Position numbers and translations under genes: made by a program | The notes under the pieces: model-generated | What the model was told of the DNA's origin: nothing | Seen by the model: the letters and a program-made list of their open reading frames with translations, nothing else | The model's database searches: none | NCBI GenBank assembly: GCA_016198755.1 | Contig: JACQIB010000001.1 | Coordinates: 32,001-96,000 of the forward strand | Direction of reading: 5' to 3' | Source: Candidatus Aenigmatarchaeota archaeon | Lineage (GTDB): Archaea > Aenigmatarchaeota > Aenigmatarchaeia > Aenigmatarchaeales > JACQIB01 | DNA length: 64,000 nt | Shown: in pieces, positions 21,604-37,298 of the stretch | Layout: the number at the start of each line of letters is the position of its first letter | Numbering within the stretch: position 1 is the first letter of the stretch

Positions 21604-22641
21604 ATGGAGGAAATACAAAAAATACTGGCTGAAATAAAGCCATACATAGACAAGGAAGTTATATCACTTTTGGAAAAAACACAGCCGGAAATCCTGAAGA
21701 AAGCTGCATTTGAGTATTTTGCGCGCGGAGGGAAAAGATTTAGGCCAGCTTTAACGGCTTTATCATGCGAAGCTCTTGGAGGTATATGGCAGGATACAAT
21801 ACCAGCCGGAGCAGCAATAGAGATAATGCATGCTTTCGCCCTTATACATGACGATATAGAAGACTATTCAGAAATCCGCAGGGGAAAGCCAGCACTCCAT
21901 ATACAATATGGCCTTCCGCACGCGATAAACGCTGGAGATTATTTGCATATGAAAATTTTCGAGGCTCTTTTGCGCGGGCAAAAAGCATGGGGGAATGAAA
22001 AATTATTTTCAGTTCTGGAGCAGTTTGTAGAGCTTTTAATAATAACAGCGCAGGGGCAGGCAATGGAAATTGAAATGAGAGACAAGCCTTTAGAGGAGGC
22101 AACAATGGAATGGTATGAAAAGATGGCTGTTGCAAAAACAGGCTATTATTCCGGCGGGGGACCCTGTGCGATAGGTGCAACAATTGCTGGTGGAACAAGA
22201 GAGCAAATAGCAGCGCTGAAAAAGTTTGGGATTGCAATTGGAGTTGCTTTCCAGATACAGGATGATGTTCTTAACTTGACAATGAGCGAATCCGAAGAAA
22301 AATTGACTCCAGAAACAGGCGGGGGAGGTGTTGGAAAGGATTTTGCAGGTGATTTGGAGGAGGGAAAGAGGACTTTGATTTTGATTCACTGCTTACAAAA
22401 ATGTTCTGGGCATGAAAAGGAAAAATTCAGGGTTTTAATTGGCAAAAAAGGCCTGAAAACAGAACAAAAGAAAGAGTTAATTGCAATAATACAAAGCACA
22501 AAATCCATAGAGTTTGCAAAAGAATATGCAAGGGAAATGTTGCAGAATGCTTTACTCCAGCTTAAGGAAAAAATCCCTGAAACAGAAGGAAGAAAGAAAC
22601 TGGAAGCAACAGCGCAGTTTCTTATAGAGAGAAAATATTAG
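21604..22641 (+). CDS. Trans-prenyltransferase (GGPP synthase-like)
   Basis: GGKRFRP, FALIHDDIED, RRG, FQIQDD, DLEEGK. Confidence 0.92.
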   Translation: MEEIQKILAEIKPYIDKEVISLLEKTQPEILKKAAFEYFARGGKRFRPALTALSCEALGGIWQDTIPAGAAIEIMHAFALIHDDIEDYSEIRRGKPALHIQYGLPHAINAGDYLHMKIFEALLRGQKAWGNEKLFSVLEQFVELLIITAQGQAMEIEMRDKPLEEATMEWYEKMAVAKTGYYSGGGPCAIGATIAGGTREQIAALKKFGIAIGVAFQIQDDVLNLTMSESEEKLTPETGGGGVGKDFAGDLEEGKRTLILIHCLQKCSGHEKEKFRVLIGKKGLKTEQKKELIAIIQSTKSIEFAKEYAREMLQNALLQLKEKIPETEGRKKLEATAQFLIERKY

Positions 22642-22719
22642 CCAATTGTCGTAGTCGTCAATAAATCAAATCAACAGAAAAGCTTTTTATTCTTAGTTTA
22701 CCCCTTTAATTGAGATTTT

Positions 22720-24132
22720 ATGCCCAGCAAACCAGTTGGAATAGAAGCAATGTATGTTTACACTCCTCAATTTTGTGTAACTTCTGAAACATTAGCAAAC
22801 GCAAGGGGCGCAAAATTAACACATTTTACAGAAGGAATAGGTATAGGTTCCTTTTCATTCCCCCCACCAAATGAAGATCATGTAAGTATGGCAGCAACAG
22901 CAGCATTAAGGCTGATGAAAGAACAAGATATAGATCCAAGGGATATAGCAAGGATTGATTTGGCAACAGAAAGCAGCAGGGAGGGTTCAAGGGGAGCTCC
23001 TTCTGATGTTGTAGGAGCATTGGAACAGGCTTTTGGTACAAACAGCTTTCGCCACGTAGCTGGTGTAGAATATAAGTTTGCTTGCATTGGTGGCGTAGAA
23101 GCTCTTAGAAATTCATGTGCACTAGCTGCACCAGACTGGCTTCCAGAAGGGAGACATAATATTGTTATAGCAACAGATTTTGCAAGATATCATTTAAGGA
23201 GCGGTGAGGAGCCAACACAGGGAGCTGCAGCAGCAGCATTATTGATAGGCAGGAAACCAAGGCTTTTGGAGATTGTACCCCGTGCTTATGGTTCAGCAAT
23301 GAGATATGAACCCGGAGACTTCAGCAAGCCAGGCGGAAGATCCATAGCGAATGTAAATGGAGGGCTATCTGTAGGTTCCTATTTAAGTGAAATGAGAACA
23401 GCTTGGTCAGGTTTTATAGCTGCTGTTAAAGAAACAGGATTTATAGTACCTTCTTCAGGGATGTGCGTAAGCGACAGTATAGACAAAGGAATTTGGCATA
23501 ATCCTCACCTGAAACAAGTGCAATCTGCTCATGCTTCCCTACTAATGCATGAATGGATCGGCTTGCCTTCAAAGCAGGATATTTTCAGAAACTTAGGCAC
23601 CCCTCCAGAAAGAGGCGAAACTCCGGATCATGTATTTTATGCTAGTCAGCCCTATAAGGATTATAGAAAACGTTTCATGAAAGAGCCAGTGGTTGTAAGG
23701 GATTTCGATAAGAGGATAAAACCCTCTACTGTTGCTCCTTTCGATATAGGCAATTCTTATTCTGCATCAGTTTTTGTTGGTATTGACAGCCTTTTTGAAA
23801 CAGACCCAGAAGACTTGGCAGGCAAAACAGTTGTTTTGGCTGGTTATGGTAGCGGAAGCCATGCTCTGATACAGGCAACCAGAGTTCCAGAAGATTATAT
23901 GCCTGTAGCAAAAAGGCTTGATTTAATGAATAGGCTGAAAAGAAGAGAACACCTCAGCATAGGCGCATATGAAACATGGCATGATTTTCATGATGGCGTA
24001 CAAAGTGGTCTTGTGAAGCCAAGTGATATTAGCTTGCCAAGATCTTTCGCTAGTCCAACGTTCGTTCTCTCTTCAGTTGGTGCCATCAAAAGTCCGACAG
24101 AAGGACAGAGAACCTATGCTTTGGTAGCATAA
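22720..24132 (+). CDS. mvaS: HMG-CoA synthase (bacterial/haloarchaeal-like type)
   Basis: ATES, FACIGG, EPTQGAAA, HNP, GNSYSAS, GYGSGS. Confidence 0.88.
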   Translation: MPSKPVGIEAMYVYTPQFCVTSETLANARGAKLTHFTEGIGIGSFSFPPPNEDHVSMAATAALRLMKEQDIDPRDIARIDLATESSREGSRGAPSDVVGALEQAFGTNSFRHVAGVEYKFACIGGVEALRNSCALAAPDWLPEGRHNIVIATDFARYHLRSGEEPTQGAAAAALLIGRKPRLLEIVPRAYGSAMRYEPGDFSKPGGRSIANVNGGLSVGSYLSEMRTAWSGFIAAVKETGFIVPSSGMCVSDSIDKGIWHNPHLKQVQSAHASLLMHEWIGLPSKQDIFRNLGTPPERGETPDHVFYASQPYKDYRKRFMKEPVVVRDFDKRIKPSTVAPFDIGNSYSASVFVGIDSLFETDPEDLAGKTVVLAGYGSGSHALIQATRVPEDYMPVAKRLDLMNRLKRREHLSIGAYETWHDFHDGVQSGLVKPSDISLPRSFASPTFVLSSVGAIKSPTEGQRTYALVA

Positions 24133-24170
24133 TTTAGAAAGCATTTAAACAGCTGTGATAAATTAGATTC

Positions 24171-24584
24171 ATGTTCAATCCATTCAGGCAGAGGATAATG
24201 GTTACTGCGGTTTTGAAAAATGGAAAAAAATTCCTTTTGCTGCACAGGAAGAAGCTGGGAATACAGGGAGGCAAGTGGCAGTTGCCTGAAGGAGGTCTGC
24301 ATTTTGCTGAAACCCCTGAGCAGGCTTTGATAAGAGAGATGAGAGAAGAAACAGGCCTTTCCCTGCGGGAAGCAAGGCTTTTAGGAGTTCATACTTCCAC
24401 AATGAGTGAGCTTGGAAAACCTCTATACCATGTAATAAGGCTGTTTTACTCCTGCAAAGCCGCAGGAAAAATAAGGCTAAGCAGGGACCACCCAGAGTTT
24501 ATCTGGGTTACGAGAGAGGGTATAAGAAAGCTTAAATTGTTTGAAGGACTAAGGTGGGGGGAAATAAAAAAGTTTTTGCGTTGA
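24171..24584 (+). CDS. Nudix hydrolase
   Basis: GGLHFAETPEQALIREMREETGL. Confidence 0.9.
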   Translation: MFNPFRQRIMVTAVLKNGKKFLLLHRKKLGIQGGKWQLPEGGLHFAETPEQALIREMREETGLSLREARLLGVHTSTMSELGKPLYHVIRLFYSCKAAGKIRLSRDHPEFIWVTREGIRKLKLFEGLRWGEIKKFLR

Positions 24585-24589
24585 TTAAA

Positions 24590-25612
24590 ATGGTGTATAT
24601 TGGAACAGCAGAGGCAAGCCCTAACATGCCTTTTGTAAAATACTGGGGAAAAAGAAATGAAGCTCTAATTTTGCCAATGAACTCAAATATTTCAGCAACC
24701 TTCGACTCCAGTCTGGCAACACGCACAACTGTTTTCTTTTCTGAATCCTTGAAAGCCGATGAACTCTGGATAAACGGAAAGCAGTTTCCTCCTGAAAGTT
24801 TGGATAAAGCAATTCCCCAGCTAAACATAATCAGGGAGTTAGCTGGTATACAGATGTTTGCTAAAATATATTCTATAAGCAAAGTTCCTGTTGCAGCTGG
24901 TCTTTCAAGTTCTTCAGCAGGATTATGTGCTTTGGCTCTGGCGTCTGCTTCAGCGCTCGGGCTTAAACTGCCGGCAGAAGAGCTTTCAATTATCTGCAGG
25001 CGCGGCTCAGGCAGTTCCTGCCGCTCAATCTATGGGGGATTTGTAGAATGGGTAAGAGGGGACAAAACAGATGGTTCAGATTCTTATGGTGTACAGATAG
25101 CAGATGATAAACACTGGCCAGAACTCAGAATGCTTGCAGTTTCCATTGAGGAAACAGAAAAAAAGGTTAAAAGCAGGGCAGGAATGAAACAGACTGTTTT
25201 AACTTCCACACTGTATCAAAAACGATTACAGGATATTGGGAATACACTGGATTCTGTAAGGAATGCTATAAGGAACAAGAACTTCCAATCTTTAGCAGAA
25301 TTAACAATGAAAGAAAGCAATAACATGCACGCAGTTTGTATGGATACATGGCCTCCAATACTTTACCTGAATGACAATTCAAGGACTGTTATACAATCTA
25401 TACATGATTTCAACGAGGGCGGGCTGCGCGCAGCCTATACTTTTGATGCTGGCCCAAACCCCTATATTATAACAGAGGAAAAGAACCTAAAGTCTGTTCT
25501 GGAGCTCTTGAAAAAAATGAGTTTCATAAAACATATTTTTATCTCAAAGATAGGCGGAAACCCAAGAGTTCTGGAAGAACATTTGCTGAACGAAAAAGGG
25601 AAACCCGTATGA
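24590..25612 (+). CDS. mvaD: Diphosphomevalonate decarboxylase (start at MVYIG inferred)
   Basis: VKYWGKR, AAGLSSSSAG, RGSGSSCRS, SRAGM, SNNMHA, YTFDAGPN. Confidence 0.92.
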   Translation: MVYIGTAEASPNMPFVKYWGKRNEALILPMNSNISATFDSSLATRTTVFFSESLKADELWINGKQFPPESLDKAIPQLNIIRELAGIQMFAKIYSISKVPVAAGLSSSSAGLCALALASASALGLKLPAEELSIICRRGSGSSCRSIYGGFVEWVRGDKTDGSDSYGVQIADDKHWPELRMLAVSIEETEKKVKSRAGMKQTVLTSTLYQKRLQDIGNTLDSVRNAIRNKNFQSLAELTMKESNNMHAVCMDTWPPILYLNDNSRTVIQSIHDFNEGGLRAAYTFDAGPNPYIITEEKNLKSVLELLKKMSFIKHIFISKIGGNPRVLEEHLLNEKGKPV

Positions 25613-26061
25613 GCCTTGATAAATCAGTTCATTTGAGCGCGGGAGCTTTAGTTTTCTCAGGGAATAAAGTACTTGCAATAAAAAGGCTGAAAGAACCTTT
25701 CAAGGGAAACTGGTCTGTTGTTGGTGGGCATGTAGAAGAGAAAGAACTTCCTAATGAAGCTGCTGTCAGGGAAGTAAAAGAAGAAACAGGGCTTGATATA
25801 GAGCTTATAGACCCGTACATAGAGATTCCTGTAGAATTCTCAGAAGGCTTAAAGCGCCTGCCCCAGCCAATTCTTGTTTCTCTTCTCCCTGTAAAAGACC
25901 ATTACCACATCTCATTCACTTATGCTGCAAAAGCAAAAAGCACAGAGATAAAAATAAACAACATTGAAGGTCTTGTACAGTGGATAGATACGAACAATAA
26001 AGAAATTTCACCTCACCTGCGTTTAGCAATAGACACATACAAAAGAGTTTTGGGAGCATGA
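25609..26061 (+). CDS. Nudix hydrolase
   Basis: GGHVEEKELPNEAAVREVKEETGL. Confidence 0.9.
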   Translation: MSLDKSVHLSAGALVFSGNKVLAIKRLKEPFKGNWSVVGGHVEEKELPNEAAVREVKEETGLDIELIDPYIEIPVEFSEGLKRLPQPILVSLLPVKDHYHISFTYAAKAKSTEIKINNIEGLVQWIDTNNKEISPHLRLAIDTYKRVLGA

Positions 26062-26113
26062 AAATAAAAAATAAAGGTTTTTATTTGCTTGGAAAAACCA
26101 TGGAGGTTTTCCC

Positions 26114-26857
26114 ATGAAAGCAATAATTTTTGACCTTGAGGGGGTTTTATGCGATACGAGAGAGTGGATGAACCATTCTGTGCGCTCTGCTTTTTTTGAG
26201 CATGGTATAGAGCTCGAATTCTCTGATAAGGAGCTTTACAATATACGCGGCTGCGCAGGCTGCTTGAATTCCCCAGAATGGATACAGGTTCTTTTAGCAT
26301 TCAATGGAAAAAATTATATTAACAAAATATACGAACTGGACAAACCAGAGGAGTTTATAGTCTCTGTACTTGAAAAGGAAAAACCAGACAAGCTTTTAGC
26401 AGGTGAGATAAACAAAACCTACAGGGAAATTTACTATTCCCAGAAAAACCAGTTCCGCACTCCCCTCTCAGGAATTAAAGAAGTTCTTGAAAAGCTCAGG
26501 CCAAATTTTTCTTTTGGTATTTTCTCAAACACAAAGCACGATTCTATTCTAAAATTGTTGGATAACGCAGGCATAAGAGGATATTTTTCTATTGTTGTTG
26601 GGCAGGAGGATGTTTCAAAACAAAAACCAGATCCTGAAGGTTTGTTAAAGGCAATTGCAGAATTAAAATCCACACCGCAGGAAACTATCTATATTGGCGA
26701 TACAGCTTCAGATGTGCAGGCAGCGCGTGCAGCAGGCTGTGTTCCAATTGGTCTGCTGACTGGAATGGGAATTGAGCGCTGGCTGCGCGCAGCAGGTGCT
26801 GTCCATATTTTCCCAACATTGAAAGAATTTATCCAAAGTACGGCAATCGTACAATGA
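26114..26857 (+). CDS. HAD-superfamily hydrolase
   Basis: FDLEGVL, FSN, KPDPE, IGDTASD. Confidence 0.88.
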   Translation: MKAIIFDLEGVLCDTREWMNHSVRSAFFEHGIELEFSDKELYNIRGCAGCLNSPEWIQVLLAFNGKNYINKIYELDKPEEFIVSVLEKEKPDKLLAGEINKTYREIYYSQKNQFRTPLSGIKEVLEKLRPNFSFGIFSNTKHDSILKLLDNAGIRGYFSIVVGQEDVSKQKPDPEGLLKAIAELKSTPQETIYIGDTASDVQAARAAGCVPIGLLTGMGIERWLRAAGAVHIFPTLKEFIQSTAIVQ

Positions 26858-26963
26858 ACGTCAATCTACTCTTCCGGAAGCATAGCCTTTATATACCTTT
26901 TCCCCGAGTTCTGTTTTTTAACTCCTATAAATCCTTTTCAACAATAGGAGTAAAGGGGATTAT

Positions 26964-28025
26964 TTGAGGCTATTGGAAACAGATGCAAAAGAACTCTTAT
27001 CAAAAGCTGGAATTTCTGTCCCAACAGGGAAAAGAGTGAGTACAGCAGCTGAGGCTGAAGCAGTAGCCAGAGAGATAGGAGAAGTTGTATTAAAGGTTCT
27101 GGGGAAGAAGGGAAGGGGAAAGGCAGGAATGATAAAGTTTGCAAACTCTCCTGCAGAAGCATTTGAGGCAGCAAAGGAGCTTTTAGAAAAATCAGATGAG
27201 GGTCTTATAATTGAGAAAAAGCTGGATATTCTGGAGGAGCTCTATGTTGCCTTTGCAGTTGATTTTTCAATAAGCAAGCCTGTTTTGATTGTTAGCAAGA
27301 AGGGAGGTGTGGAAATAGAAAACCAGGCGGATGTTAAAAAAATACCTATAAACATTCTGCGCGGGCTTACAGCAGAGCAGGCAGGCGAGGCTGTTGCCTA
27401 TCTAGGACACGCAGAGCTTTCACCCTTCCTCCAATTACTGTACAAGCAATTTAGGAAAATAGATTCGGAGCTTTTGGAAATAAATCCTTTAGCTATTACA
27501 GCCAATGGAGCTTATGTTGCTGATGCTCTAATTGAAATAAATGATGACAGCCTTTCCCGCCAACCTTTCAGGCAAGAAACGCCAACTGGAGGCATTGAAG
27601 CGGAGATGGCAGGTGCTGGCTGGTCCTACCATGATTTGGGGGGAAGTGTGGGATTAATCTGCTCTGGTGCAGGCTTGTCAATGGCTACACTTGATTTAAT
27701 CCAGATTTTCGGTGGAAAGCCGGCTAATTTTTTGGACATGGCACAAGTGGATGGAGACGGGATATATAGAGGATTGGAAATACTCTCGAAAAAACAAGGA
27801 GTCCGCTCAATTATTATCAGCCTTTTTGCAGGGTTGAACAGGTGCGACAGCATGGCAGAGGGTATTACAAGGTTTGTAAGGGAGAAGGGGCAGAAAGTGC
27901 CAATAATTGTAAGGATGGTTGGGAACAGAGAGGAGGAGGGTTTTGCAATACTGCGTTCTATTGGCTTAGAGCCCTATAAGGAACTGGAAGCAGCCGTAAA
28001 AAAGGCAGTTGAGGTGGCTGTGTAA
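26964..28025 (+). CDS. Succinyl-CoA-synthetase-like acyl-CoA ligase, beta subunit (ATP-grasp), divergent
   Basis: GRGKAG, LEINPL, GAGL.MATLD, PANFLD, RCD; acid-binding motifs differ from SucC. Confidence 0.85.
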   Translation: MRLLETDAKELLSKAGISVPTGKRVSTAAEAEAVAREIGEVVLKVLGKKGRGKAGMIKFANSPAEAFEAAKELLEKSDEGLIIEKKLDILEELYVAFAVDFSISKPVLIVSKKGGVEIENQADVKKIPINILRGLTAEQAGEAVAYLGHAELSPFLQLLYKQFRKIDSELLEINPLAITANGAYVADALIEINDDSLSRQPFRQETPTGGIEAEMAGAGWSYHDLGGSVGLICSGAGLSMATLDLIQIFGGKPANFLDMAQVDGDGIYRGLEILSKKQGVRSIIISLFAGLNRCDSMAEGITRFVREKGQKVPIIVRMVGNREEEGFAILRSIGLEPYKELEAAVKKAVEVAV

Positions 28026-28900
28026 TGGCAATTCTTGTAAATAGTGAAACAAAGGTTTGCGTGCAAGGTATAACAGGGAAAGCAGGAACCCTGCACACTG
28101 GCACAATGCTGGAATATGGAACAAAAATAGTTTCAGGTGTTAGGCCAGGAGCTGAAGGGGAGGAGGTTTTGGGAATACCTGTTTTTAACAGGGTCTCCAC
28201 TGCTGTGGAGGAAACCGGAGCAAACAGTTCCATAATTTTTGTGCCTGCAGCAATGGCTAAAGGTGCTGCACTAGAGGCAATAAATGCCGGAATAAAGCTT
28301 ATTGTAATAATACCTGAGCATGTCCCTTTGCATGATGAGCTTGAGATAATGCAGGCAGCTGAGGACTCGGGAATTGTTGTGGTTGGTCCAAACACTCCAG
28401 GGTTAATAGCCCCCTCACTTAAATGTAAAATTGGCTTTGTACCAAACAAATATTATATACCAGGTTCTGTTGGAGTAATGGCACGCTCAGGAACTTTAAC
28501 TTATGAGATTGTCTCCCGCCTTACTTTGGCTGGAATTGGGCAGAGCACTGCAATTGGAGTAGGTGGTGACCCTGTTATTGGGAGCAGGTTCCCTGACCTG
28601 ATTAAAAAATTTGAGGCAGATCCTGAAACAAAGGTTATTTTGCTTATAGGAGAAGTTGGTGGAACCCAAGAAGAGGAGGCTGCAGCTCTTGTTGCTGATG
28701 GAAAAATAAAAAAGCCTGTTGTAGCCTATATTGCAGGCTTCTCAGCTCCCCCAGGGAAAAGGCTTGGGCATGCAGGTGCGATAATTTCAGGCTCACAGGG
28801 GACCATGGAGTCCAAACTTAAATCCTTTCAAAAAGCAGGAATAGCTGTTGCCAAAACCCCTTCAGAAGTTTTGGATCTTGTGAAACAAAAATTGAGATGA
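28025..28900 (+). CDS. Succinyl-CoA-synthetase-like acyl-CoA ligase, alpha subunit
   Basis: QGITG, GPNTPG, RSGTLTYE, GVGGDP, GEVGG, GHAGA phospho-His. Confidence 0.92.
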   Translation: MAILVNSETKVCVQGITGKAGTLHTGTMLEYGTKIVSGVRPGAEGEEVLGIPVFNRVSTAVEETGANSSIIFVPAAMAKGAALEAINAGIKLIVIIPEHVPLHDELEIMQAAEDSGIVVVGPNTPGLIAPSLKCKIGFVPNKYYIPGSVGVMARSGTLTYEIVSRLTLAGIGQSTAIGVGGDPVIGSRFPDLIKKFEADPETKVILLIGEVGGTQEEEAAALVADGKIKKPVVAYIAGFSAPPGKRLGHAGAIISGSQGTMESKLKSFQKAGIAVAKTPSEVLDLVKQKLR

Positions 28901-28904
28901 TAAA

Positions 28905-30371
28905 ATGGTAGCAGGTATTGAAGATAGAAGAATATTGGAAGACGCGAGAAATGATGTTAGTGGTATAGTAACTAGTATTGCATCCCAATTGCAACATGGT
29001 ATGCATCTTTACAAGGCACCAGAGACTGTTAGAACTTTATACGGGCTTCCACAGACAGATGAAGCCAGTGAGAAAAAGTGCAGAGCCTATGCTGCTGCAG
29101 CTATCAGGAGATTTTTTGCAGAAAAGTATGGAGTGGATACGGTAGCTTTGGCAAGCACTGCCATAGTCCCGCCTCTGGTTAAAAAATCTAAAAAACTTGA
29201 AAATGGAACAACCGTAGATTTATGGGAGTCAAAAATGCCAAATTATATGGGAGGAGGAGTTGGAGGAAGACCTGTATCTGTTGTCGGGCCTGCAACATTA
29301 GAAATAGAAGTTTACGATAATATAAATGGAAAAGGAGAACCAATAAAAGAGAATGTCGTTTACATTCCGCTTGCACCAACAAGATTTGGTGTTGCTGAAG
29401 GTGTTAGCGCAGGATTAAAATATATTGCAGATTCTGGAAAACCAATAAAATTGAAAGTTGAAAGTATAAGCAGGGTAACGAGGTCCCCTGTATTTAAGTT
29501 TCCTACAGAAGCAAGTGCGGAAAGTGCTGCAAACAGTATTGGTGCGGGTGTTAGAAGTCATTTGGAAACAGAAGATAACGGAAACCTATTTGGAGAAATA
29601 AAGGGACTGGCAGACAAACTAATGAAAGGACATAACGGTTCTCTCGAAGGTCTGCACGCTGTTACTCTGGGTCCATACTTATGGGCAAATTTTGTCTATG
29701 AAATGAGCGGGGATAATTATGGGCACGAAGCTGTAACAGCCGTTACCAGAGAAGTGGTAAGAGAGGTGCTTCTAAAAAAATTGCCTCATGCAGAATTAAA
29801 AATGCTTGCAGGAGGGTTGGATGGTGACTTAAGACCTGCAACCAATCGATATGGTCGTATGGGAAACATCAGGGGAAGATGGGTTACTGCTTCAGCAGAG
29901 ATTACACCAGAAACCCTTAAAAAGAGGTTTGGAAATATAAGTCCGGAAGGATTAGCAGAGTTAAATAACTTAAAGCAGAAGGGAAACGAGATTCTAGGTA
30001 CGCATACTTTAGCTGGCATGGGGCCAGAGATTGTTGAAGGAGTGTTTTATGCGCTTGAGCCCCCAACCTCCCCATTCCTCTCCTCTACAATTAGTATGGA
30101 AACAAATGTTAAAGGTGATAGTTTAATACTAAATGCTATATTCCATAATATGGAAGTGGGCACAGTGCGGGAGGGTCCACTTTCAGATATAGCAAGCGAA
30201 TGCAGGGCTATTACAGGGAACATAGATGGGGCAGGAAACCCGATAGGCAGGAATGCGGTAAGAATGGCTGCGCGCATTGCTGCAGCAACTTTAGCTGGGG
30301 AGCTAAACCAATATGCACAAATGGCAACAGGAAGATTAGGAATGGAAGCCTATAGGAATGGAAAGCCATAG
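28905..30371 (+). CDS. Divergent class I HMG-CoA reductase paralogue, catalytic residues replaced
   Basis: Collinear with the neighbouring HMGR: PVSVVGP, YIPLA, TRSPVF, RGRWVTA, EVGTV, AAATLAGELN. Confidence 0.75.
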   Translation: MVAGIEDRRILEDARNDVSGIVTSIASQLQHGMHLYKAPETVRTLYGLPQTDEASEKKCRAYAAAAIRRFFAEKYGVDTVALASTAIVPPLVKKSKKLENGTTVDLWESKMPNYMGGGVGGRPVSVVGPATLEIEVYDNINGKGEPIKENVVYIPLAPTRFGVAEGVSAGLKYIADSGKPIKLKVESISRVTRSPVFKFPTEASAESAANSIGAGVRSHLETEDNGNLFGEIKGLADKLMKGHNGSLEGLHAVTLGPYLWANFVYEMSGDNYGHEAVTAVTREVVREVLLKKLPHAELKMLAGGLDGDLRPATNRYGRMGNIRGRWVTASAEITPETLKKRFGNISPEGLAELNNLKQKGNEILGTHTLAGMGPEIVEGVFYALEPPTSPFLSSTISMETNVKGDSLILNAIFHNMEVGTVREGPLSDIASECRAITGNIDGAGNPIGRNAVRMAARIAAATLAGELNQYAQMATGRLGMEAYRNGKP

Positions 30372-30374
30372 AGA

Positions 30375-31637
30375 GTGAAAAGAATGGAACAAGAGCAGAT
30401 TAATGATTTGGTGGAGAAGCTGGAAAGCGGGGCCGTAAAGCTGCATGAGGTTGAAAACTTTACAGCAAATGATAGCAATGCAGCCACAATTGTACGCAGG
30501 GTTTATCTGGAAAAAAAACTTGGCTTCCCATTAAAGCACATTGGCTCAACTATAGTGGACTTTAATGATTCCATAAGCAGGAATATCGAGAATCCAATAG
30601 GAGCGGTGCAAATCCCGCTGGGGTATGCTGGAGATATGAAAATAAACGGAGACCATGTTTCTGGAACAGTCCCAATTTTAATGGCAACAACAGAAGGCAG
30701 GCTTGTTGCCGGTGTTGCAAGGGGAATAACTGTTGCCAATAGGGCTGGAGGTGTAAATGTTTCTGTTCTAAAAGATGGCATGACAAGGGATGTGCTTGTA
30801 AGGACAGGCGGTGCAAAAGAAAGCGCAACCCTTGCAAAATGGATAATGACAGAGGAAGGGTTTAACTTGCTGAAAGAGGGATTTTCAAAAACCACAAAGC
30901 ACGGTAAGCTGAAAGAAGTCAGGCCATATGTTATTGGAAGGGACACACATTTGAGGTTCAAGGCTGAAACGGGCGCTGCAATGGGCATGAATATGCTTAC
31001 AATAGCTGGGAAAGCCGCTGTGGATTATATTTTGCCTAAACTAAAGGAAAAAGGTATAAATGCTTTTGTTGTTTCAGAATCAGGCAATTTATGCTCAGAT
31101 AAAAAACCGGCTTTCATTAATGTTATTGAAGGGCGCGGAGTAACTCTAACAGCAGACATTGTTGTTCCACCTGAAGTTTTGAAGGAGAGGTTCAGGGTTT
31201 CAGCAGCTGCAATAGCAGATCTCTGCAAATCAAAAAACCTTATAGGATCAGCCCTTGCAGGTTCACATGGCTTTAACGCTCATTTTGCAAATATTTTGGC
31301 TTCCATGTTCATGGCGTTCGGGCAGGATGTTGCTCAGATTGTAGAAGGGTCACAGGGGGTAACTGATGCGGCTGTTCTTGAAGATGGCTCTCTCTATTTC
31401 TCTTGCTATCTGCCTGCGATAGAAGTTGGAACCTATGGAGGAGGAACTAAAAGGGAGACGCAAAAAGAGGCTTTGAAGATAATGGGACTCTATGGGGAGA
31501 ATGATCCTGAAGGTATAACAAGACTGAAACTGGCAGAAATTATTGGAGCAGCCTGCCTTATTGGAGATTTGAATCTGTTAGCAATTCAGGCTGCAGGAGA
31601 ACTTTCTAAAACCCATGGCTCAATCAAGAGGGGGTAA
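30375..31637 (+). CDS. hmgA: HMG-CoA reductase (NADPH), class I
   Basis: ENPIG, MATTEG, AMGMN, SGNLCSDKKP, GQD, VGTYGGGT, C-terminal His. Confidence 0.95.
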   Translation: MKRMEQEQINDLVEKLESGAVKLHEVENFTANDSNAATIVRRVYLEKKLGFPLKHIGSTIVDFNDSISRNIENPIGAVQIPLGYAGDMKINGDHVSGTVPILMATTEGRLVAGVARGITVANRAGGVNVSVLKDGMTRDVLVRTGGAKESATLAKWIMTEEGFNLLKEGFSKTTKHGKLKEVRPYVIGRDTHLRFKAETGAAMGMNMLTIAGKAAVDYILPKLKEKGINAFVVSESGNLCSDKKPAFINVIEGRGVTLTADIVVPPEVLKERFRVSAAAIADLCKSKNLIGSALAGSHGFNAHFANILASMFMAFGQDVAQIVEGSQGVTDAAVLEDGSLYFSCYLPAIEVGTYGGGTKRETQKEALKIMGLYGENDPEGITRLKLAEIIGAACLIGDLNLLAIQAAGELSKTHGSIKRG

Positions 31638-31761
31638 GTACCTTTTCATATTATCTACCTTAAAACAAAATGTTCTGGTTCTTTTAAAAACCATTTTCTA
31701 ACGTCACCTGCCTTTTTGCCATCAGAAAGCTATATAAGTTTAGCAATACCTCAAAAGGCTT

Positions 31762-32775
31762 ATGATAACAGCTTCAGCCCCAGGTAAAATACTGCTTTTT
31801 GGGGAGCATGCAGTTGTATATGATAAGCTTGGAATAGCTGCTGCAATAGACAAAAGAATAGGGGTTTCAGCCTACAAAGGAGGCACAGCTGTAGAACTCC
31901 AGCAGCCTTTTCATTTTCCAACACTTAGAAAAACACAGGATGAAATAGAGGAACTACACGCACAGTTCAGGCTTTTGTTTGAACAAAAGCAGTTTGATAA
32001 AATAAAAGAATTAGGTTTCCATAATGCAATATATGTTATGCTCGGGGAAATATTTTCCAAACATGGCTATTCAAACATTATAGCCCGCGCCCATTTATCA
32101 CATACGTTAAAGGGAATAGGCGCATCAGCAAGTTTGTTTTCTGCACTCTCAGCTGCAACATTAAAAGTCCTTGGTGTTGAAGCAACTCTAAAAGAGATAT
32201 CAGACTTTTCCTATATTGGGGATGTTGTAGCCCATGGAGGCACACCGTCCGGTATAGATAACAGCATTGCAACTTTTGGCGGGTTTTTATCCTTTAGGAA
32301 ATCAGAAGGTCCAAAACCCTTAAAACTTGACTTAAACGCAAAGATAATTGTAGTAGATACAGGTGAAAAGTCTTCTACAGCTGAGCTTGTTTCCAATGTG
32401 CGCAATTTGCGCGAAAAGGAACCTGAAAGAGTAAATAAAATAATGGACGAAATAGATTCTATTTCTAATGAGGCTTTGGTAAAAATAAAGAACAGGGATA
32501 TTGTAGCTCTCGGAAACCTAATGGACAGAAATCACACATTGTTAAAATCCTTAGGTTGCGGCCTTTCCACCGAAAGAATAGAAAAAATAGTGTCTATTGC
32601 AAAGGAAAACGGAGCTTATGGCGCAAAACTGTCTGGAGCAGGTGGTGGAGGGATATGCATTGCTTTGACAGACAATCCAAAAAAGATATTAGACTCACTG
32701 AAAAATGCAGGTTTTTACTGTTTTGAAACAAATCTTGGAGCCCATGGGGTTTCAATAGATGAAACAGGTTTTTGA
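31762..32775 (+). CDS. mvk: Mevalonate kinase
   Basis: APGKILLFGEHAVVY, HGGTPSGID, KLSGAGGGG. Confidence 0.85.
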   Translation: MITASAPGKILLFGEHAVVYDKLGIAAAIDKRIGVSAYKGGTAVELQQPFHFPTLRKTQDEIEELHAQFRLLFEQKQFDKIKELGFHNAIYVMLGEIFSKHGYSNIIARAHLSHTLKGIGASASLFSALSAATLKVLGVEATLKEISDFSYIGDVVAHGGTPSGIDNSIATFGGFLSFRKSEGPKPLKLDLNAKIIVVDTGEKSSTAELVSNVRNLREKEPERVNKIMDEIDSISNEALVKIKNRDIVALGNLMDRNHTLLKSLGCGLSTERIEKIVSIAKENGAYGAKLSGAGGGGICIALTDNPKKILDSLKNAGFYCFETNLGAHGVSIDETGF

Positions 32776-32861
32776 CACATTTTTCAATAAACCATACTTC
32801 GCTTTTTGCCGTATTATTAAAAACTCTTTATAAATTAGCCACATGCTGAATTTACTACGTT

Positions 32862-33821
32862 ATGGTCAAGGTATCAGCCCCAGGAAAGCTCTTGCTCTGC
32901 GGGGATCATGCAGTTGTACATGGAAATCCATGTATTGTAACAGCAGTGGATCACAGAGCTTTTGTTACTGCTAAAAGCACTGGCGGGAACGCTGTTGTTG
33001 TAAAAGCCCCTGATGTTGGCATAACAGAATTCTCATATCCACTACCTTTCAATGGTCTTTCAGTTCCAAAAGGTGCAGCTTTTGTAATACAGGCAGTGAA
33101 AAACTTCTATGGCAAATATGGACTTAGCGATGGACTTGTTATAGAGACAGCTTCTGAGTTTCCATCTTCATTTGGGCTTGGAAGTTCTTCTGCTGTAACA
33201 GTAGCTACCGTAAAAGCACTATCAGATATTTTCTCAATAAAAATGGAACCACGCGAGATTTTTGATCTTTCATATAAAACTGTTTTGGATGTGCAGGGTG
33301 TGGGATCTGGATTTGATGTTGCATCAGCAGCCTATGGAGGAACACTGTTTTATTTTACAGGAGGAAAAATAATCGAACCTCTCACTGTTAAAAAAATTCC
33401 CTTGATTGTAGGCTATACAGGACAGAAAGCTGATACAGCTACAATAGTAAGGAAGGTGGATGAGAAATTAAAAGCCTATCCTGATCATGTTCTTTCAAAT
33501 TTCAATCTTATAGGAAAAATAGTGCTGGATGCAAAAGATACAATAGAGAGAAAAGACTGGAAGAAACTGGGGGATATTTTCAATTTCGACCACGGTCTGC
33601 TTTCAGGTTTAGGAGTTTCCTGCGCAGAGCTTGAAAAGCTTGTATTTGCTGCGCGCAACGCAGGTGCTTACGGTGCAAAACTATCGGGAGCAGGCGGGGG
33701 GGATTGTATGATAGCTGTTTCAGAAGACACAGAGAGCATTGTAACAGCAATAGACAGCGCAGGCGGGAAAGTTATTCCAGTCAGGACAGGCGTTGAAGGA
33801 GTAAGGATAGAGACTGAATAA
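32862..33821 (+). CDS. GHMP kinase, (phospho)mevalonate kinase-like
   Basis: APGKLLLCGDHAVV, FGLGSSSA, QGVGSGFDVA, KLSGAGGGDC. Confidence 0.8.
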   Translation: MVKVSAPGKLLLCGDHAVVHGNPCIVTAVDHRAFVTAKSTGGNAVVVKAPDVGITEFSYPLPFNGLSVPKGAAFVIQAVKNFYGKYGLSDGLVIETASEFPSSFGLGSSSAVTVATVKALSDIFSIKMEPREIFDLSYKTVLDVQGVGSGFDVASAAYGGTLFYFTGGKIIEPLTVKKIPLIVGYTGQKADTATIVRKVDEKLKAYPDHVLSNFNLIGKIVLDAKDTIERKDWKKLGDIFNFDHGLLSGLGVSCAELEKLVFAARNAGAYGAKLSGAGGGDCMIAVSEDTESIVTAIDSAGGKVIPVRTGVEGVRIETE

Positions 33822-33971
33822 AAAGGAGCGCTTAAATTCACTAAAAGCAAACAACCTTTCTATGAAAACAATAGGGTAGATAAGCATGGAAAAATCCTTT
33901 CTTCTGCACTGTTGGAGATGAAATATAGGCAGGAACATGGGTTTAAATAGATTTTTCTTCCTTTAGCTGTT

Positions 33972-35198
33972 ATGAAAGAAACCGTTGTCTCGGCTCCCGG
34001 AAAATTCTTATTGACAGGAGAATATCTAGTAGCATTAGAGTCAGATAGGCCCGCATATTCTGCTGCCATTAACAGAAGAGTATTTTCTTGGATAGGGGAG
34101 CTGGAAGGGAGATCTGTAACAATAAACATGCCCCAGTTTGGAATTGTAGGGAAAATGGATATAGGCGATGGTGGTAAAACAGAAGTATATCCAACAAGCA
34201 AACGGAGGCAGTTCAGATATATTGAGAATGCGGTGGAATTTACGCTCAGATATTTGAAAGAGGCAGGCGTTTCATTAGAGGGAATGCATATAATTACCTT
34301 AAATGAAAGGGATTTTTTCAGAGATTGGGGAATTTCTAAATCAAGGTTTGGAAGCTCTGCTGCAGCTACTGTGGCTACAGTTGGTGCAATATTTTCCTAT
34401 TATCATAGGGATATTTCAAACCCAGAGGAGAGGGAGCGTATATTTAACCTGTCGCAGATGGCTCACCATCATTCACAGGGCGGGTTTGGCAGCGGGTTTG
34501 ATGTGTCAACGTCTCTCAATGGATCTCAAGTTTACACAAGATTCCCAGAAGATAATATACCACCCAAAGCCACTTTAACTAACAAAGTTATTCTTAATCG
34601 TACTGATTCTAAATGGACATATTCGATGCGTTCGCTCGGGCTTCCCGAAGGCGTAGAAACAGCCATAGCAGTGACCAGAGGTTTAGACAATCCCATTGAA
34701 ATGCTGTCTAGAGTGAGGCATATGAAAAGTTCCAGACAAGACATTTACGGTGATGTAATGAACAAACTCGATGTGGCAAACAGGGATTTTGTGAGTCTTC
34801 TTGAAAGAGGCGTCAGAGGAGAAGAAATAGGGCAGGCTCTAACAAGAACCAGATTGCTTACCAGAGAGCTTGGAGAAAAGTCTGGTGTTGTTATAGAGCC
34901 TCCCCACATCAGGGCAGCATTAGACAATGTTGTTTCCATGGGAGGTGCATGGGGGGCAAAACTCCAAGGAGCTGGTGGAGGATACTCTGCAATTGCACTA
35001 TGTTCAATGGAACATTTTTATCACAGTTGTGGAATAATGTCTACGGCAGGCTTTACTCCTCTCTCTGACATGAGAGTAGATAATTCAACTGAAAAACCTA
35101 TTGGAATGAGATTAGAAGACCCCCAGACATTTCATGATCTGGCAAACAGTCTGGGGTTAGCACTTTTTGAACCCGATCATGGATATCATGAAAATTGA
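33972..35198 (+). CDS. Phosphomevalonate kinase-like (ERG8 type), divergent
   Basis: SAPGKFLLTGEYLV, KSRFGSSAA, AHHHSQGGFGSGFDV, YTRF, GAGGG. Confidence 0.75.
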   Translation: MKETVVSAPGKFLLTGEYLVALESDRPAYSAAINRRVFSWIGELEGRSVTINMPQFGIVGKMDIGDGGKTEVYPTSKRRQFRYIENAVEFTLRYLKEAGVSLEGMHIITLNERDFFRDWGISKSRFGSSAAATVATVGAIFSYYHRDISNPEERERIFNLSQMAHHHSQGGFGSGFDVSTSLNGSQVYTRFPEDNIPPKATLTNKVILNRTDSKWTYSMRSLGLPEGVETAIAVTRGLDNPIEMLSRVRHMKSSRQDIYGDVMNKLDVANRDFVSLLERGVRGEEIGQALTRTRLLTRELGEKSGVVIEPPHIRAALDNVVSMGGAWGAKLQGAGGGYSAIALCSMEHFYHSCGIMSTAGFTPLSDMRVDNSTEKPIGMRLEDPQTFHDLANSLGLALFEPDHGYHEN

Positions 35199-35267
35199 TT
35201 TTCAACTGTCGTACAATATACGACAGCTCTAACAACGCTTAAATAGACTTTTCCTTAAACAAAGCCC

Positions 35268-36323
35268 ATGCCAGAGTCTTCCAGAGACTTTACACCCAGC
35301 AGAAAATCAGAGCACATAAGAATAACAACTCAGGAGAATGTGGAAACTGGGAGCACGGGATTTGAGGACGTTTCTTTATTACATAAAGCTGTTCCGGAGC
35401 TGAATTTTGAGAAAGTTTCAACTGAAACAGAGTTTTTCGGAAAGAAATTCTCTCTCCCTCTAATGATAGCAGGAATGACTGGAGGGGCAGTAGAAACAAA
35501 GGAAATTAATTTAGGTTTGGCAAAGGCAGCTGAAGAGGCTGGGATAGGGATGGGGGTTGGTTCACAGAAAGCAATGATTGAACATGAAGAATTAACAGAA
35601 ACCTATTCTGTGCGTTCTATTGCACCTACAATTTTTCTGTGCGGAAATATCGGTTTACCAAAATTAAAAATATACTCTGTGCAGCAGATTGAAAAAATGC
35701 TGCTCTCTATTAAGGCAGATGCTCTCTGTGTCCATTTAAACCCTGCACAAGAACTGTTTCAAAAAGACTCTGAGATAGAGCCAGACTGGACAGGCTGCTT
35801 CTCTGCCTTAAAAACTATTTGCTCTGAGCTAAACTATCCTGTTATAGCAAAGGAAGTTGGAAATGGTATCTCGAAAGAAACAGCTGTCCAGCTAAAAGAA
35901 GCGGGGGTTAAAGCAATCGATGTTGGCGGAGCTGGTGGAACAAGCTGGGTTGTTATAGATGGTATGAGATCTGGAAAGGATACAACAGATTTTAAAAATT
36001 GGGGAATTCCAACTGCAATCTCAATTCTCGAGGCAAGGAAAGCTGGATTACCAATAATTGCAACAGGCGGGCTTCGCTCTGGGCTGGATATTGCAAAAGC
36101 CCTTGTTCTTGGAGCTGATTTGGCTGGAATAGCCCTGCCTTTCCTAAAAGAGTTCAAACGTGGCGGTGTTCCAGCTGTTGAAGCCTATATAGAAAAGCTG
36201 GAAAGAGAGCTGCGCACAGCAATGTTTCTCTCTGGCTGTAAATCAATCTCCGAGCTGAAAAAACTCAAACCAATTATAACAGGCAAAACAAAAGAATGGG
36301 CAGAACAGCGCGGCTTATTTTAG
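35268..36323 (+). CDS. fni: Type 2 isopentenyl-diphosphate isomerase (FMN)
   Basis: RKSEHI, GMTGG, GVGSQ, HLNPAQE, KEVGNG, GAGGTSW, WGIPT. Confidence 0.95.
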   Translation: MPESSRDFTPSRKSEHIRITTQENVETGSTGFEDVSLLHKAVPELNFEKVSTETEFFGKKFSLPLMIAGMTGGAVETKEINLGLAKAAEEAGIGMGVGSQKAMIEHEELTETYSVRSIAPTIFLCGNIGLPKLKIYSVQQIEKMLLSIKADALCVHLNPAQELFQKDSEIEPDWTGCFSALKTICSELNYPVIAKEVGNGISKETAVQLKEAGVKAIDVGGAGGTSWVVIDGMRSGKDTTDFKNWGIPTAISILEARKAGLPIIATGGLRSGLDIAKALVLGADLAGIALPFLKEFKRGGVPAVEAYIEKLERELRTAMFLSGCKSISELKKLKPIITGKTKEWAEQRGLF

Positions 36324-36368
36324 GCAGGTTCATATCACTTTTTAAGTGTAGATTTGTTAACAAAACAT

Positions 36369-37298
36369 ATGGCAAAAATAACGATATTGGGCGCAGGTGC
36401 TATGTCATCTGCCATTTCCATTCCGCTTATAAAAAACAGGAATAAAGTTAATATCTGGGGAACAGAATTCGATAAAGCAATTATAGACAAGCTAAAGTCA
36501 GATCAGCCACACCCCACGTTAAATATGATAATAGATGCAAATTTCTTTTATTCTGATCAGCTCGCGGAAGCCATAGAAGACTCGGAAATTGTGATATTTG
36601 GTGTGGTTTCCTCCGGCGTTAGAAAGATTGCACAAATGGCAAAGAAGTTTTTGAAAAAGCAAATAATAGTAAATGTCGCAAAAGGGTTTGATAACGGCCA
36701 AACAATGGTAGAGGTTTTGGAGCAGGAACTTCCCGATTTACCAAAGGTTGTGGTTGCAGGTCCATCTAACGCAAAAGACGTTTCCCAATCCCAGAATACA
36801 ACAGTTGTTTTTGCATCTTCTGATGTACATGCGGCAGATATATGCAAAAAGGCGTTCCAAACAGAAAACTACAGCATAGAAATTTCCGACGATTCAAACG
36901 GTGCTGAGATATGTTCCTCCCTCAAAAACGTATACGGTATACTTATCCACTCCGCAAAGACAGATAACGAGCGGTCAGTGCTTTTTGTAAAATCCCTTGA
37001 GGAGATTGGCATATTTGCAGAAGCATGCGGAGGCAAGTTAAAAACAGTTTATGGCTTGGCAGGAGCCGGAGACCTTTACCTAACACAATGGGGAAGGAAT
37101 GGCATGCTTGGCAAAATGATAGCAGATGGAAAGAAACCCTCTGCAGCATTGGAAGAACTAAAGGCAAAAAACATTACTGTAGAAGGATATGCTGCAACAA
37201 AGGCTGCAGTTGAGCTTGCAAAATCAAAAAACCTAAACCTGCCTTTGTTGGAATCTGCATATAATCTTCTCTACAGGGACCAGCCCTTCAAAATATAA
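36369..37298 (+). CDS. gpsA: NAD(P)H-dependent glycerol-3-phosphate dehydrogenase (GpsA type)
   Basis: ILGAGAM, AKG, GPSNA, LKNVY, GLAGAGDL.LT..GRN, VEG. Confidence 0.88.
   Translation: MAKITILGAGAMSSAISIPLIKNRNKVNIWGTEFDKAIIDKLKSDQPHPTLNMIIDANFFYSDQLAEAIEDSEIVIFGVVSSGVRKIAQMAKKFLKKQIIVNVAKGFDNGQTMVEVLEQELPDLPKVVVAGPSNAKDVSQSQNTTVVFASSDVHAADICKKAFQTENYSIEISDDSNGAEICSSLKNVYGILIHSAKTDNERSVLFVKSLEEIGIFAEACGGKLKTVYGLAGAGDLYLTQWGRNGMLGKMIADGKKPSAALEELKAKNITVEGYAATKAAVELAKSKNLNLPLLESAYNLLYRDQPFKI

Follow-up and report, generated by a model that had tools for sequence, protein, structure and literature searches.

A succinyl-CoA synthetase-like ligase encoded with HMG-CoA reductase in an aenigmatarchaeon: a candidate HMG-CoA ligase and possible salvage entrance to the mevalonate pathway

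The genome of a Candidatus Aenigmatarchaeota archaeon (assembly GCA_016198755.1; 890,842 bp in 6 contigs, 89.5% complete) carries a compact four-gene unit in which a ligase resembling succinyl-CoA synthetase (SCS) is encoded together with 3-hydroxy-3-methylglutaryl-CoA (HMG-CoA) reductase (HMGR). We examined this unit within a 64,000-nucleotide stretch of contig JACQIB010000001.1 (positions 32,001 to 96,000, forward strand), called the window, to which all coordinates refer unless another locus is named. The unit occupies 26964-31637 on the + strand and is enclosed by a single long mevalonate gene cluster of about 16 kb (21604-37298, +). Its genes, all on the + strand, encode a SucC-like beta subunit (P0001, 353 aa, 26964..28025; Pfam domains ATP-grasp_2 and Ligase_CoA), a SucD-like alpha subunit (P0002, 291 aa, 28025..28900; CoA_binding and Ligase_CoA, with the phosphohistidine loop GHAGA), a divergent paralogue of the HMGR fold (P0003, 488 aa, 28905..30371; a weak match of 44.1 bits to HMG-CoA_red, PF00368) and a class I HMGR (P0004, 420 aa, 30375..31637; 340.4 bits to PF00368). 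These coordinates reproduce the tight spacing described in the original prediction for this DNA, an overlap of 1 nt followed by gaps of 4 and 3 nt. The beta gene starts with TTG (26964) and the class I HMGR gene with GTG (30375), and the unit is flanked by 106 nt of non-coding DNA upstream and 124 nt downstream. The TATA-box-like element TTTATATA (26889..26896, +), read directly in the 106-nt gap 5' of the beta gene, is a possible archaeal promoter of the four genes. A scan for bacterial-type promoters and terminators, which is unsuited to an archaeon, performed no better than on shuffled sequence (36 against 32.8 expected).

The two ligase subunits possess the domain set of the nucleoside diphosphate (NDP)-forming acyl-CoA synthetases, ATP-grasp and CoA-ligase domains in beta and CoA-binding and ligase-CoA domains in alpha, and the pair is a member of this superfamily. 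The alpha subunit retains the GHAGA motif that had been predicted and scores above the SucD cut-off (NF004230, 379.5 bits against 336), a point in favor of a plain SCS. The beta subunit falls under both SucC cut-offs (NF001913, 244.7 against 370 bits; TIGR01016, 239.3 against 375.55 bits) and under that of malate-CoA ligase (MtkA; NF010647, 186 against 604 bits), and a Pfam scan of P0001 did not find the Citrate_bind domain PF16114. An AlphaFold2 model of beta (pLDDT 89.5) adopts the SCS-beta fold, its best match in the PDB being Thermus aquaticus SCS beta (3ufx, TM 0.85); identity to the best solved structure is 34%, and the nearest solved structures are all SCS. A complex prediction combining alpha, the beta C-terminal domain (residues 216-353) and the HMGR paralogue gave a score of 0.00 and is uninformative on binding.

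Where aligned canonical SucC sequences read NGAG, FLDxGGG and IFGGI(T/L)RCD, the beta subunit reads SGAG, FLDMAQVDG and SLFAGLNRCD. All three changes, to which the original prediction had drawn attention, are present in the sequence and are common to the whole clade to which this protein belongs. Eight positions (K49, W220, S234, A260, Q261, L291, N292 and N321) separate 65 clade sequences completely from 13 canonical ones, and the C-terminal acid/CoA domain of beta holds six of these. In SucC the Asn of NGAG and the GG loop reportedly contact succinate, a result credited to Huang and Fraser in 2016, and we take the changed motifs of beta to be those that bind succinate in SucC.

Scanning one genome per species for the clade pattern gave 56 loci of this clade, 11 archaeal and 45 bacterial, and a metagenome scan returned 6 more; together they extend across DPANN archaea and over ten bacterial phyla. 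Ten of the archaeal loci belong to Micrarchaeota/Micrarchaeia and one to another Aenigmatarchaeota metagenome-assembled genome (MAG), whose locus (L004) is the closest carrier with the gene order of the window. The bacterial loci come from Thermodesulfobacteriota/deltaproteobacteria, Myxococcota, Gemmatimonadota, KSB1, Cloacimonadota, Latescibacterota, Fibrobacterota, Aminicenantes, Planctomycetota and others. We left 10 truncated or duplicate rows out of the maximum-likelihood tree, which has 67 rows and, as outgroup, the ACL-type (ATP-citrate lyase) beta of the window's genome, a long branch. Its 57 clade rows stand apart from 9 canonical SucC sequences (support 100/99; 200 of 200 bootstrap trees), which places the ligase outside the ordinary SucCD clades. 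Public records label its relatives 'succinate--CoA ligase subunit beta', which speaks for a plain SCS. The distribution is rare and patchy: the module occurs in 2 of 371 genomes of the window's own phylum, and the clade in 9 of 401 genomes of a Micrarchaeota-type phylum sample.

Several observations bear on whether this clade could supply the housekeeping SCS of its hosts. Of the five bacterial carrier genomes tested, four have in addition a canonical SucC that scores higher and shows NGAG/GGG/GGI motifs; the fifth (G001) has the clade copy and no other SucC, as would be expected of an ordinary SCS. The window's genome, at 89.5% completeness, yielded no aconitase, pyruvate or 2-oxoglutarate ferredoxin oxidoreductase (POR/OGOR) or SdhA in genome-wide searches. 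The earlier statement that no other tricarboxylic acid (TCA) cycle gene is nearby holds for 19.7-38 kb of the window and for the 25 of 33 Pfam families listed among its other 44 open reading frames (ORFs) of at least 120 aa. The genome's only other SucCD-like pair, on contig C3, was considered as the housekeeping SCS and rejected, since it is of the ACL/citryl-CoA type with the citrate-binding domain PF16114. It belongs to a split ATP-citrate-lyase-like set outside the window (C3:103662-106477, - strand, equal to L063:5662-8477) consisting of a 389-aa beta subunit with ATP-grasp and Citrate_bind domains, a 299-aa alpha subunit with CoA_binding and Ligase_CoA domains, and a 249-aa citrate-synthase C-terminal protein resembling citryl-CoA lyase; through this set the cell may obtain acetyl-CoA by cleaving citrate that it scavenges. 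Because those TCA enzymes were not found and the other pair is ACL-type, the genome has no evident producer or consumer of succinyl-CoA. We conclude that the clade beta is a paralogue with its own job rather than a housekeeping SucC.

The genes that accompany the ligase recur. A class I HMGR lies beside or near it in eight of the 11 archaeal genome loci (L003, L004, L005, L006, L010, L011, L024 and L052). As for the remaining three, L012 has the HMGR paralogue with no class I HMGR adjoining, the sequence of L001 ends about 400 bp past alpha, and unrelated ORFs follow the ligase in L028. Four of the six metagenome loci show the order beta-alpha-(paralogue)-HMGR, three of these four being near-identical, and the other two are too short to judge. 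The 401-genome sample contains nine further SucC-type matches (L119-L127), five with canonical motifs and the rest too divergent to call, and no HMGR was found within 1.5 kb of any of them. No CoA-transferase was found among the conserved neighbors of the clade loci. The expectation that linkage to mevalonate or HMG-CoA genes would be conserved was thus borne out in other archaeal genomes, in metagenomes and, as follows, in deltaproteobacteria.

The delta/Thermodesulfobacteriota subclade comprises 21 loci, 18 placed by the tree and 3 truncated ones assigned by titles and motifs, and its neighbors were counted by tblastn. An IclR/PcaR-type regulator is present in 15 of the 21, an organic-acid or ABC importer with a binding protein (TRAP, TAXI-TRAP or Liv-type) likewise in 15, a homologue of HMG-CoA lyase in 13, an AcnX-family protein in 4 and a thiolase in 2. 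Common gene orders are beta-alpha-IclR-lyase-(AcnX)-DctPQM and beta-alpha-IclR-TAXI-permease-lyase. When 10 of the 13 lyase homologues were scanned, seven scored above the NCBIfam cut-off for HMG-CoA lyase (358-424 against 246 bits). The deltaproteobacterial locus L055 encodes a class II degradative HMGR (491.8 bits; cut-off 259.95).

Two features of these bacterial loci deserve mention in their own right. At L055:9857-19589 the class II HMGR is accompanied by a divergent HMG-CoA-lyase-like gene, an IclR gene and a Liv-type ABC importer, and the ligase genes look truncated (beta ORF 147 aa, alpha ORF 161 aa). In L053 (13816-15027), L039, L038 and L025, the AcnX-family protein is encoded between the HMG-CoA lyase and the TRAP importer. 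It scores 454.6 bits on Pfam and falls far under the hydroxyproline dehydratase cut-off; we speculate that it could act on an unsaturated free acid, for example 3-methylglutaconate, whose hydration would give 3-hydroxy-3-methylglutarate (HMG).

The two HMGR-related proteins of the unit differ sharply in their catalytic motifs. P0004 matches PF00368 along its whole length, has intact TTEG, DKKP, GQD and K-T-H motifs and matches PDB 6hr7 with 348.6 bits, its score being slightly under the TIGR00533 cut-off (403.1 against 441.8 bits). We also considered whether the HMGR linked to the ligase might be without its catalytic His and rejected this, since the conserved His is the second in the motif and is present in 38 of 38 aligned HMGRs. 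The window HMGR and those of L004, L011, L024, L052 and L104-L109 read GAAMGMN where 27 other aligned HMGRs and PDB 6hr7 read GD(A/S)MGMN; this change is not confined to ligase-linked copies.

P0003 is far under the same cut-off (59.8 against 441.8 bits). In an alignment of this protein, its four closest-type relatives and four true HMGRs, we examined the four residues that we take to be catalytic in HMGR (E559, K691, D767 and H866 in human numbering). The Glu of TTEG is replaced by Arg (R160, invariant in the paralogues), the first Lys of DKKP by Leu (Met in L024 and L052), the Asp of GQD by Pro (Ser or Gly in the other paralogues) and the C-terminal His by Ala (Lys in the four relatives). 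The five paralogues share invariant polar residues of their own, for example R160, H274, D306, D308, E375, E417 and E423, so that P0003 may have a changed activity; it may be an accessory subunit or a rewired enzyme. The paralogue occurs in only part of the archaeal loci, and wherever it does (window, L004, L012, L024, L052 and L128; six of six) it directly follows alpha. A word-based protein search with P0003 found three relatives only, and a metagenome scan with the paralogue alignment gave 406 pattern matches, none of which was confirmed as a relative. In the ESM Atlas, P0003 returned HMGR-family leads only, all below 0.9, among them a cluster of a 451-aa Thermodesulfobacteriota protein similar in structure and bacterial fusions of an HMGR domain with AMP-binding and PP-binding domains; such a fusion would be a coupling of ligase and reductase.

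We compared 12 archaeal carriers, the window's genome (G000) and G006-G016, for thiolase and HMG-CoA synthase. In the window's genome, at its stated completeness, no thiolase was found, as the original prediction had held; that prediction needs correcting in that the cluster does encode an HMG-CoA synthase (22720-24132). Across the 12, a thiolase was found in six (6 of the 11 other than the window's genome), so that a strict association of the clade with thiolase absence, which the original prediction had put forward as a check, must be rejected. A match of any kind to HMG-CoA synthase was found in six carriers and none in the other six, and neither enzyme was found in five (G006, G008, G009, G011 and G015). 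G008 is the Aenigmatarchaeota MAG that carries L004, where a near-complete mevalonate cluster adjoins the ligase; from identical alignment statistics we infer that it is the same genome as G040 (92% complete). The 401-genome sample encodes HMGR in 288 genomes and HMG-CoA synthase in 253. HMGR is present in 9 of 9 carriers there, against 279 of 392 other genomes, in agreement with the predicted co-occurrence. Among the HMGR-positive genomes, synthase was missing from 5 of 9 carriers and from 38 of 279 non-carriers (odds ratio 7.9; Fisher p = 0.005, a value that overstates the case because the carriers are mutually related).

Taken together, these observations lead us to propose that beta and alpha form an NDP-forming, most likely ADP-forming, HMG-CoA ligase on the SCS scaffold, a reading of its substrate that draws on gene context and co-occurrence and to which we assign a probability of roughly one half. 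It is favored because the only metabolite that class I HMGR, HMG-CoA lyase and class II HMGR all share is HMG-CoA, and HMG is the likely imported acid because importer, ligase and lyase form a complete route only with HMG. SauCD, a SucCD homologue for sulfoacetate, and the consumption of host-secreted free HMG by a symbiont, both taken up below, are precedents for it. In this scheme the acid pocket would have been re-tuned from succinate to HMG. By analogy with the family, ATP would phosphorylate the alpha His of GHAGA, the phosphoryl group would move to one carboxylate of HMG in the C-terminal domain of beta, and CoA would displace the phosphate to yield HMG-CoA, presumably the (S) form. In the archaeon the reaction would run towards HMG-CoA; the adjoining class I HMGR would reduce the product to mevalonate, which would enter the kinase, decarboxylase, isomerase and prenyl-synthase steps of the cluster, and the ligase would let the pathway be entered by salvage, without thiolase or HMG-CoA synthase. 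In deltaproteobacteria a ligase of this clade would initiate HMG catabolism to acetyl-CoA and acetoacetate via HMG-CoA lyase. More tentatively, and with odds that we place below even, host-dependent DPANN archaea that have lost thiolase and synthase may build their isoprenoid lipids from scavenged HMG by way of ligase and HMGR, a rewired, non-reducing paralogue serving as third component in some lineages, while sediment deltaproteobacteria grow on HMG with ligase and lyase.

A number of observations stand against the HMG-CoA ligase reading, besides the relatedness of the carriers. Several of the beta substitutions introduce larger residues (Gly to Ala, Gly to Gln), and added bulk in the acid site does not obviously suit a substrate larger than succinate. 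The window's own genome possesses an apparently intact HMG-CoA synthase and no thiolase that we could find, a combination that fits an acetoacetate ligase equally well. G013, G014 and G016 have a clear synthase and a clear thiolase and G010 has weaker matches to both, so that the ligase cannot be a mere stand-in for synthase and thiolase. G012 has a weak synthase-like PF01154 match (29.6 bits). The absences themselves rest on MAGs whose completeness is about 90% or not given. No conserved importer was found beside the archaeal loci (10 ORFs scanned). On the bacterial side, the delta group was defined by ourselves from the tree and record titles, 8 of its 21 loci have no lyase match, and three of the 10 lyase homologues scanned lie under the cut-off (153-202 bits). 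The 22 loci of a third subclade, which come from FCB and other phyla, showed no conserved neighbors, no Pfam family reaching more than 2 of 86 ORFs.

Three alternatives have to be weighed against an HMG-CoA ligase. The one that survives best, which we nevertheless consider unlikely, is that the enzyme acts on another acid (3-methylglutaconate, 3-methylglutarate, glutarate, citramalate or a mevalonate-related compound), or in reverse as an ATP-conserving acyl-CoA cleavage, with a loose tie to HMG-CoA. The SCS scaffold has already given rise to malate-, citrate- and sulfoacetate-specific enzymes, the AcnX-family (de)hydratase of 4 of the 21 delta loci could have a related free acid as its substrate, and both the low-scoring lyase homologues and the uninformative FCB subclade leave room for such a substrate. 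Against another acid stand the single metabolite shared by the three linked enzymes and the lack of any hydratase, mutase or transferase consistently present to turn a different acyl-CoA into HMG-CoA. The reverse reaction, which the original prediction had imagined as conserving ATP from mevalonate oxidation, is unsupported in the archaeon, where the cluster is otherwise anabolic (kinases, decarboxylase, isomerase and prenyl synthase).

A still less probable alternative is an ADP-forming acetoacetate-CoA ligase, which would provide acetoacetyl-CoA for the synthase of thiolase-less archaea and re-activate the acetoacetate released by the lyase in deltaproteobacteria. Acetoacetate is a product of HMG-CoA lyase and is near succinate in size, two of the 21 delta loci include thiolase genes, and the combination of synthase and no detected thiolase in the window's genome is what this alternative predicts. 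It accounts poorly for the wider distribution: no synthase that could use acetoacetyl-CoA was found in half of the 12 archaeal carriers, its absence among HMGR-positive genomes is commoner in carriers than in non-carriers, and more than half of the other archaeal carriers have a thiolase. In addition, the closest archaeal neighbor is HMGR rather than synthase, and the source of HMG-CoA in the delta operons of importer, ligase and lyase would be left unexplained. Of the two substrates offered originally, then, HMG feeding HMGR is favored by the separate clade, the acid-site changes, the gene linkage and the missing synthases, and acetoacetate as a substitute for thiolase fares poorly.

The least probable alternative is an ordinary SCS with lineage-specific drift, placed beside HMGR by chance or making succinyl-CoA with which an unlinked CoA-transferase activates HMG or acetoacetate: to the resemblances noted above it can add that a succinate:HMG CoA-transferase (EC 2.8.3.13) is known (listed in PMC8085960), and it is opposed by the sub-threshold beta and its separate clade, the changes in motifs presumed to bind succinate, the canonical SucC retained in most bacterial carriers tested, the absence of an evident succinyl-CoA producer or consumer in the window's genome, the recurrence of linkage to HMG-CoA enzymes in three separate contexts and the lack of CoA-transferases among the conserved neighbors.

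The remainder of the mevalonate cluster is likewise all on the + strand. Upstream of the four-gene unit lie genes for a polyprenyl synthase (21604-22641), a 470-aa HMG-CoA synthase of bacterial/eukaryotic type (22720-24132) whose catalytic E/C/H motifs align with PDB 5hwp, a NUDIX hydrolase (24171-24584), a diphosphomevalonate decarboxylase (24554-25612; 305.5 bits, cut-off 171.35), a second NUDIX hydrolase (25609-26061) and a HAD hydrolase (26114-26857). Downstream are two mevalonate-kinase-like GHMP kinases (31762-32775 and 32862-33821), a phosphomevalonate-kinase-like kinase (33972-35198), a type 2 isopentenyl diphosphate isomerase (35268-36323) and a protein resembling NAD-dependent glycerol-3-phosphate dehydrogenase (GpsA-like, 36354-37298, with both Pfam domains).

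Archaeal lipids are built on glycerol-1-phosphate, and a bacterial-type GpsA-like gene at the end of an archaeal isoprenoid cluster is odd. The two NUDIX genes and the HAD phosphatase gene (24171-26857) are interleaved with the decarboxylase gene immediately 5' of the ligase, and their products might hydrolyse phosphorylated or CoA-bearing intermediates of the pathway. The three GHMP kinases (31762-35198) and the diphosphomevalonate decarboxylase correspond to the lower mevalonate route of the eukaryote/Sulfolobales type, which, according to PMC6107057, occurs in only a few DPANN species. Other ORFs of the window are archaeal housekeeping genes (TFIIB, RtcB, S8e, CCA-adding enzyme and ArgRS), and one gives an Intein_splicing match. 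Elsewhere in the genome, a LAGLIDADG-bearing intein lies inside a GlmS-like gene with GATase and SIS domains (L063:12743-16000, - strand, contig C3).

As commonly taught, the mevalonate pathway has one entrance, from acetyl-CoA through acetoacetyl-CoA to HMG-CoA. An HMG-CoA ligase would constitute an ATP-dependent salvage entrance and a new EC activity, and it would explain how reduced symbiotic archaea with HMGR and no detectable HMG-CoA synthase obtain isoprenoid lipids. Free HMG would become an exchanged metabolite, and mevalonate could be engineered from HMG without thiolase and synthase. The automatic label 'succinate--CoA ligase' of a widespread clade would be corrected; a wrong name of this kind inflates TCA-cycle reconstructions in MAGs. 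The TCA cycle of Micrarchaeota is treated in PMC8975820. According to PMC11343714, honey bees secrete free HMG and Snodgrassella alvi consumes it, the first two steps not being annotated; the ligase would be a candidate enzyme for the first of these steps in symbionts. No Snodgrassella record was found among the 56 clade loci. In the passages of PMC6107057 examined, mevalonate gene sets are described as varying among DPANN archaea and no ligase is mentioned. We found neither an ADP-forming HMG-CoA ligase nor a linkage of SucCD with HMGR described in the open-access literature that we searched.

Comparison with known systems suggests that what is new here is most likely the acid specificity and the physiological role on a known SCS scaffold. 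The window pair shares with SucCD (EC 6.2.1.5 / 6.2.1.4) its two subunits, domain order, GHAGA loop and fold. It differs in a shorter beta (353 aa against about 375-390 aa) that lies under the equivalog cut-offs and in a separate clade, in the N to S, GG to AQ, I(T/L) to LN and T to N changes of the beta C-terminal domain, and in having HMG-CoA enzymes rather than TCA genes as neighbors. MtkAB and citryl-CoA synthetase (CCS)/ATP-citrate lyase belong to the same superfamily and have altered acid specificities, yet the window beta reaches only 186 of the 604 bits set for MtkA, is without Citrate_bind and matches CCS (6hxq) with only 100 bits. The closest parallel in design may be SauCD of Bilophila wadsworthia, which PMC10413351 presents as a SucCD homologue, an ADP-forming ligase with specificity for sulfoacetate whose genes lie with those for an importer and a reductase. 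By that description it resembles the window pair in being a SucCD homologue for a non-TCA acid encoded with the reductase of its acyl-CoA product, and differs in the acid and in a reductase that is an aldehyde dehydrogenase rather than HMGR. Succinate-hydroxymethylglutarate CoA-transferase (EC 2.8.3.13) is the known route from free HMG to HMG-CoA; unlike the window ligase, it belongs to an unrelated family and uses a CoA donor rather than ATP, and no gene of its type was found in these ligase clusters. Finally, mevalonate catabolism of the mvaAB type in Pseudomonas mevalonii comprises a class II HMGR and HMG-CoA lyase. The bacterial clade loci are similar in their HMG-CoA lyase, in the class II HMGR of L055 and in their uptake and regulation genes, and they differ in that their entry enzyme is an ATP-dependent ligase, which implies that free HMG rather than mevalonate would be the compound imported.

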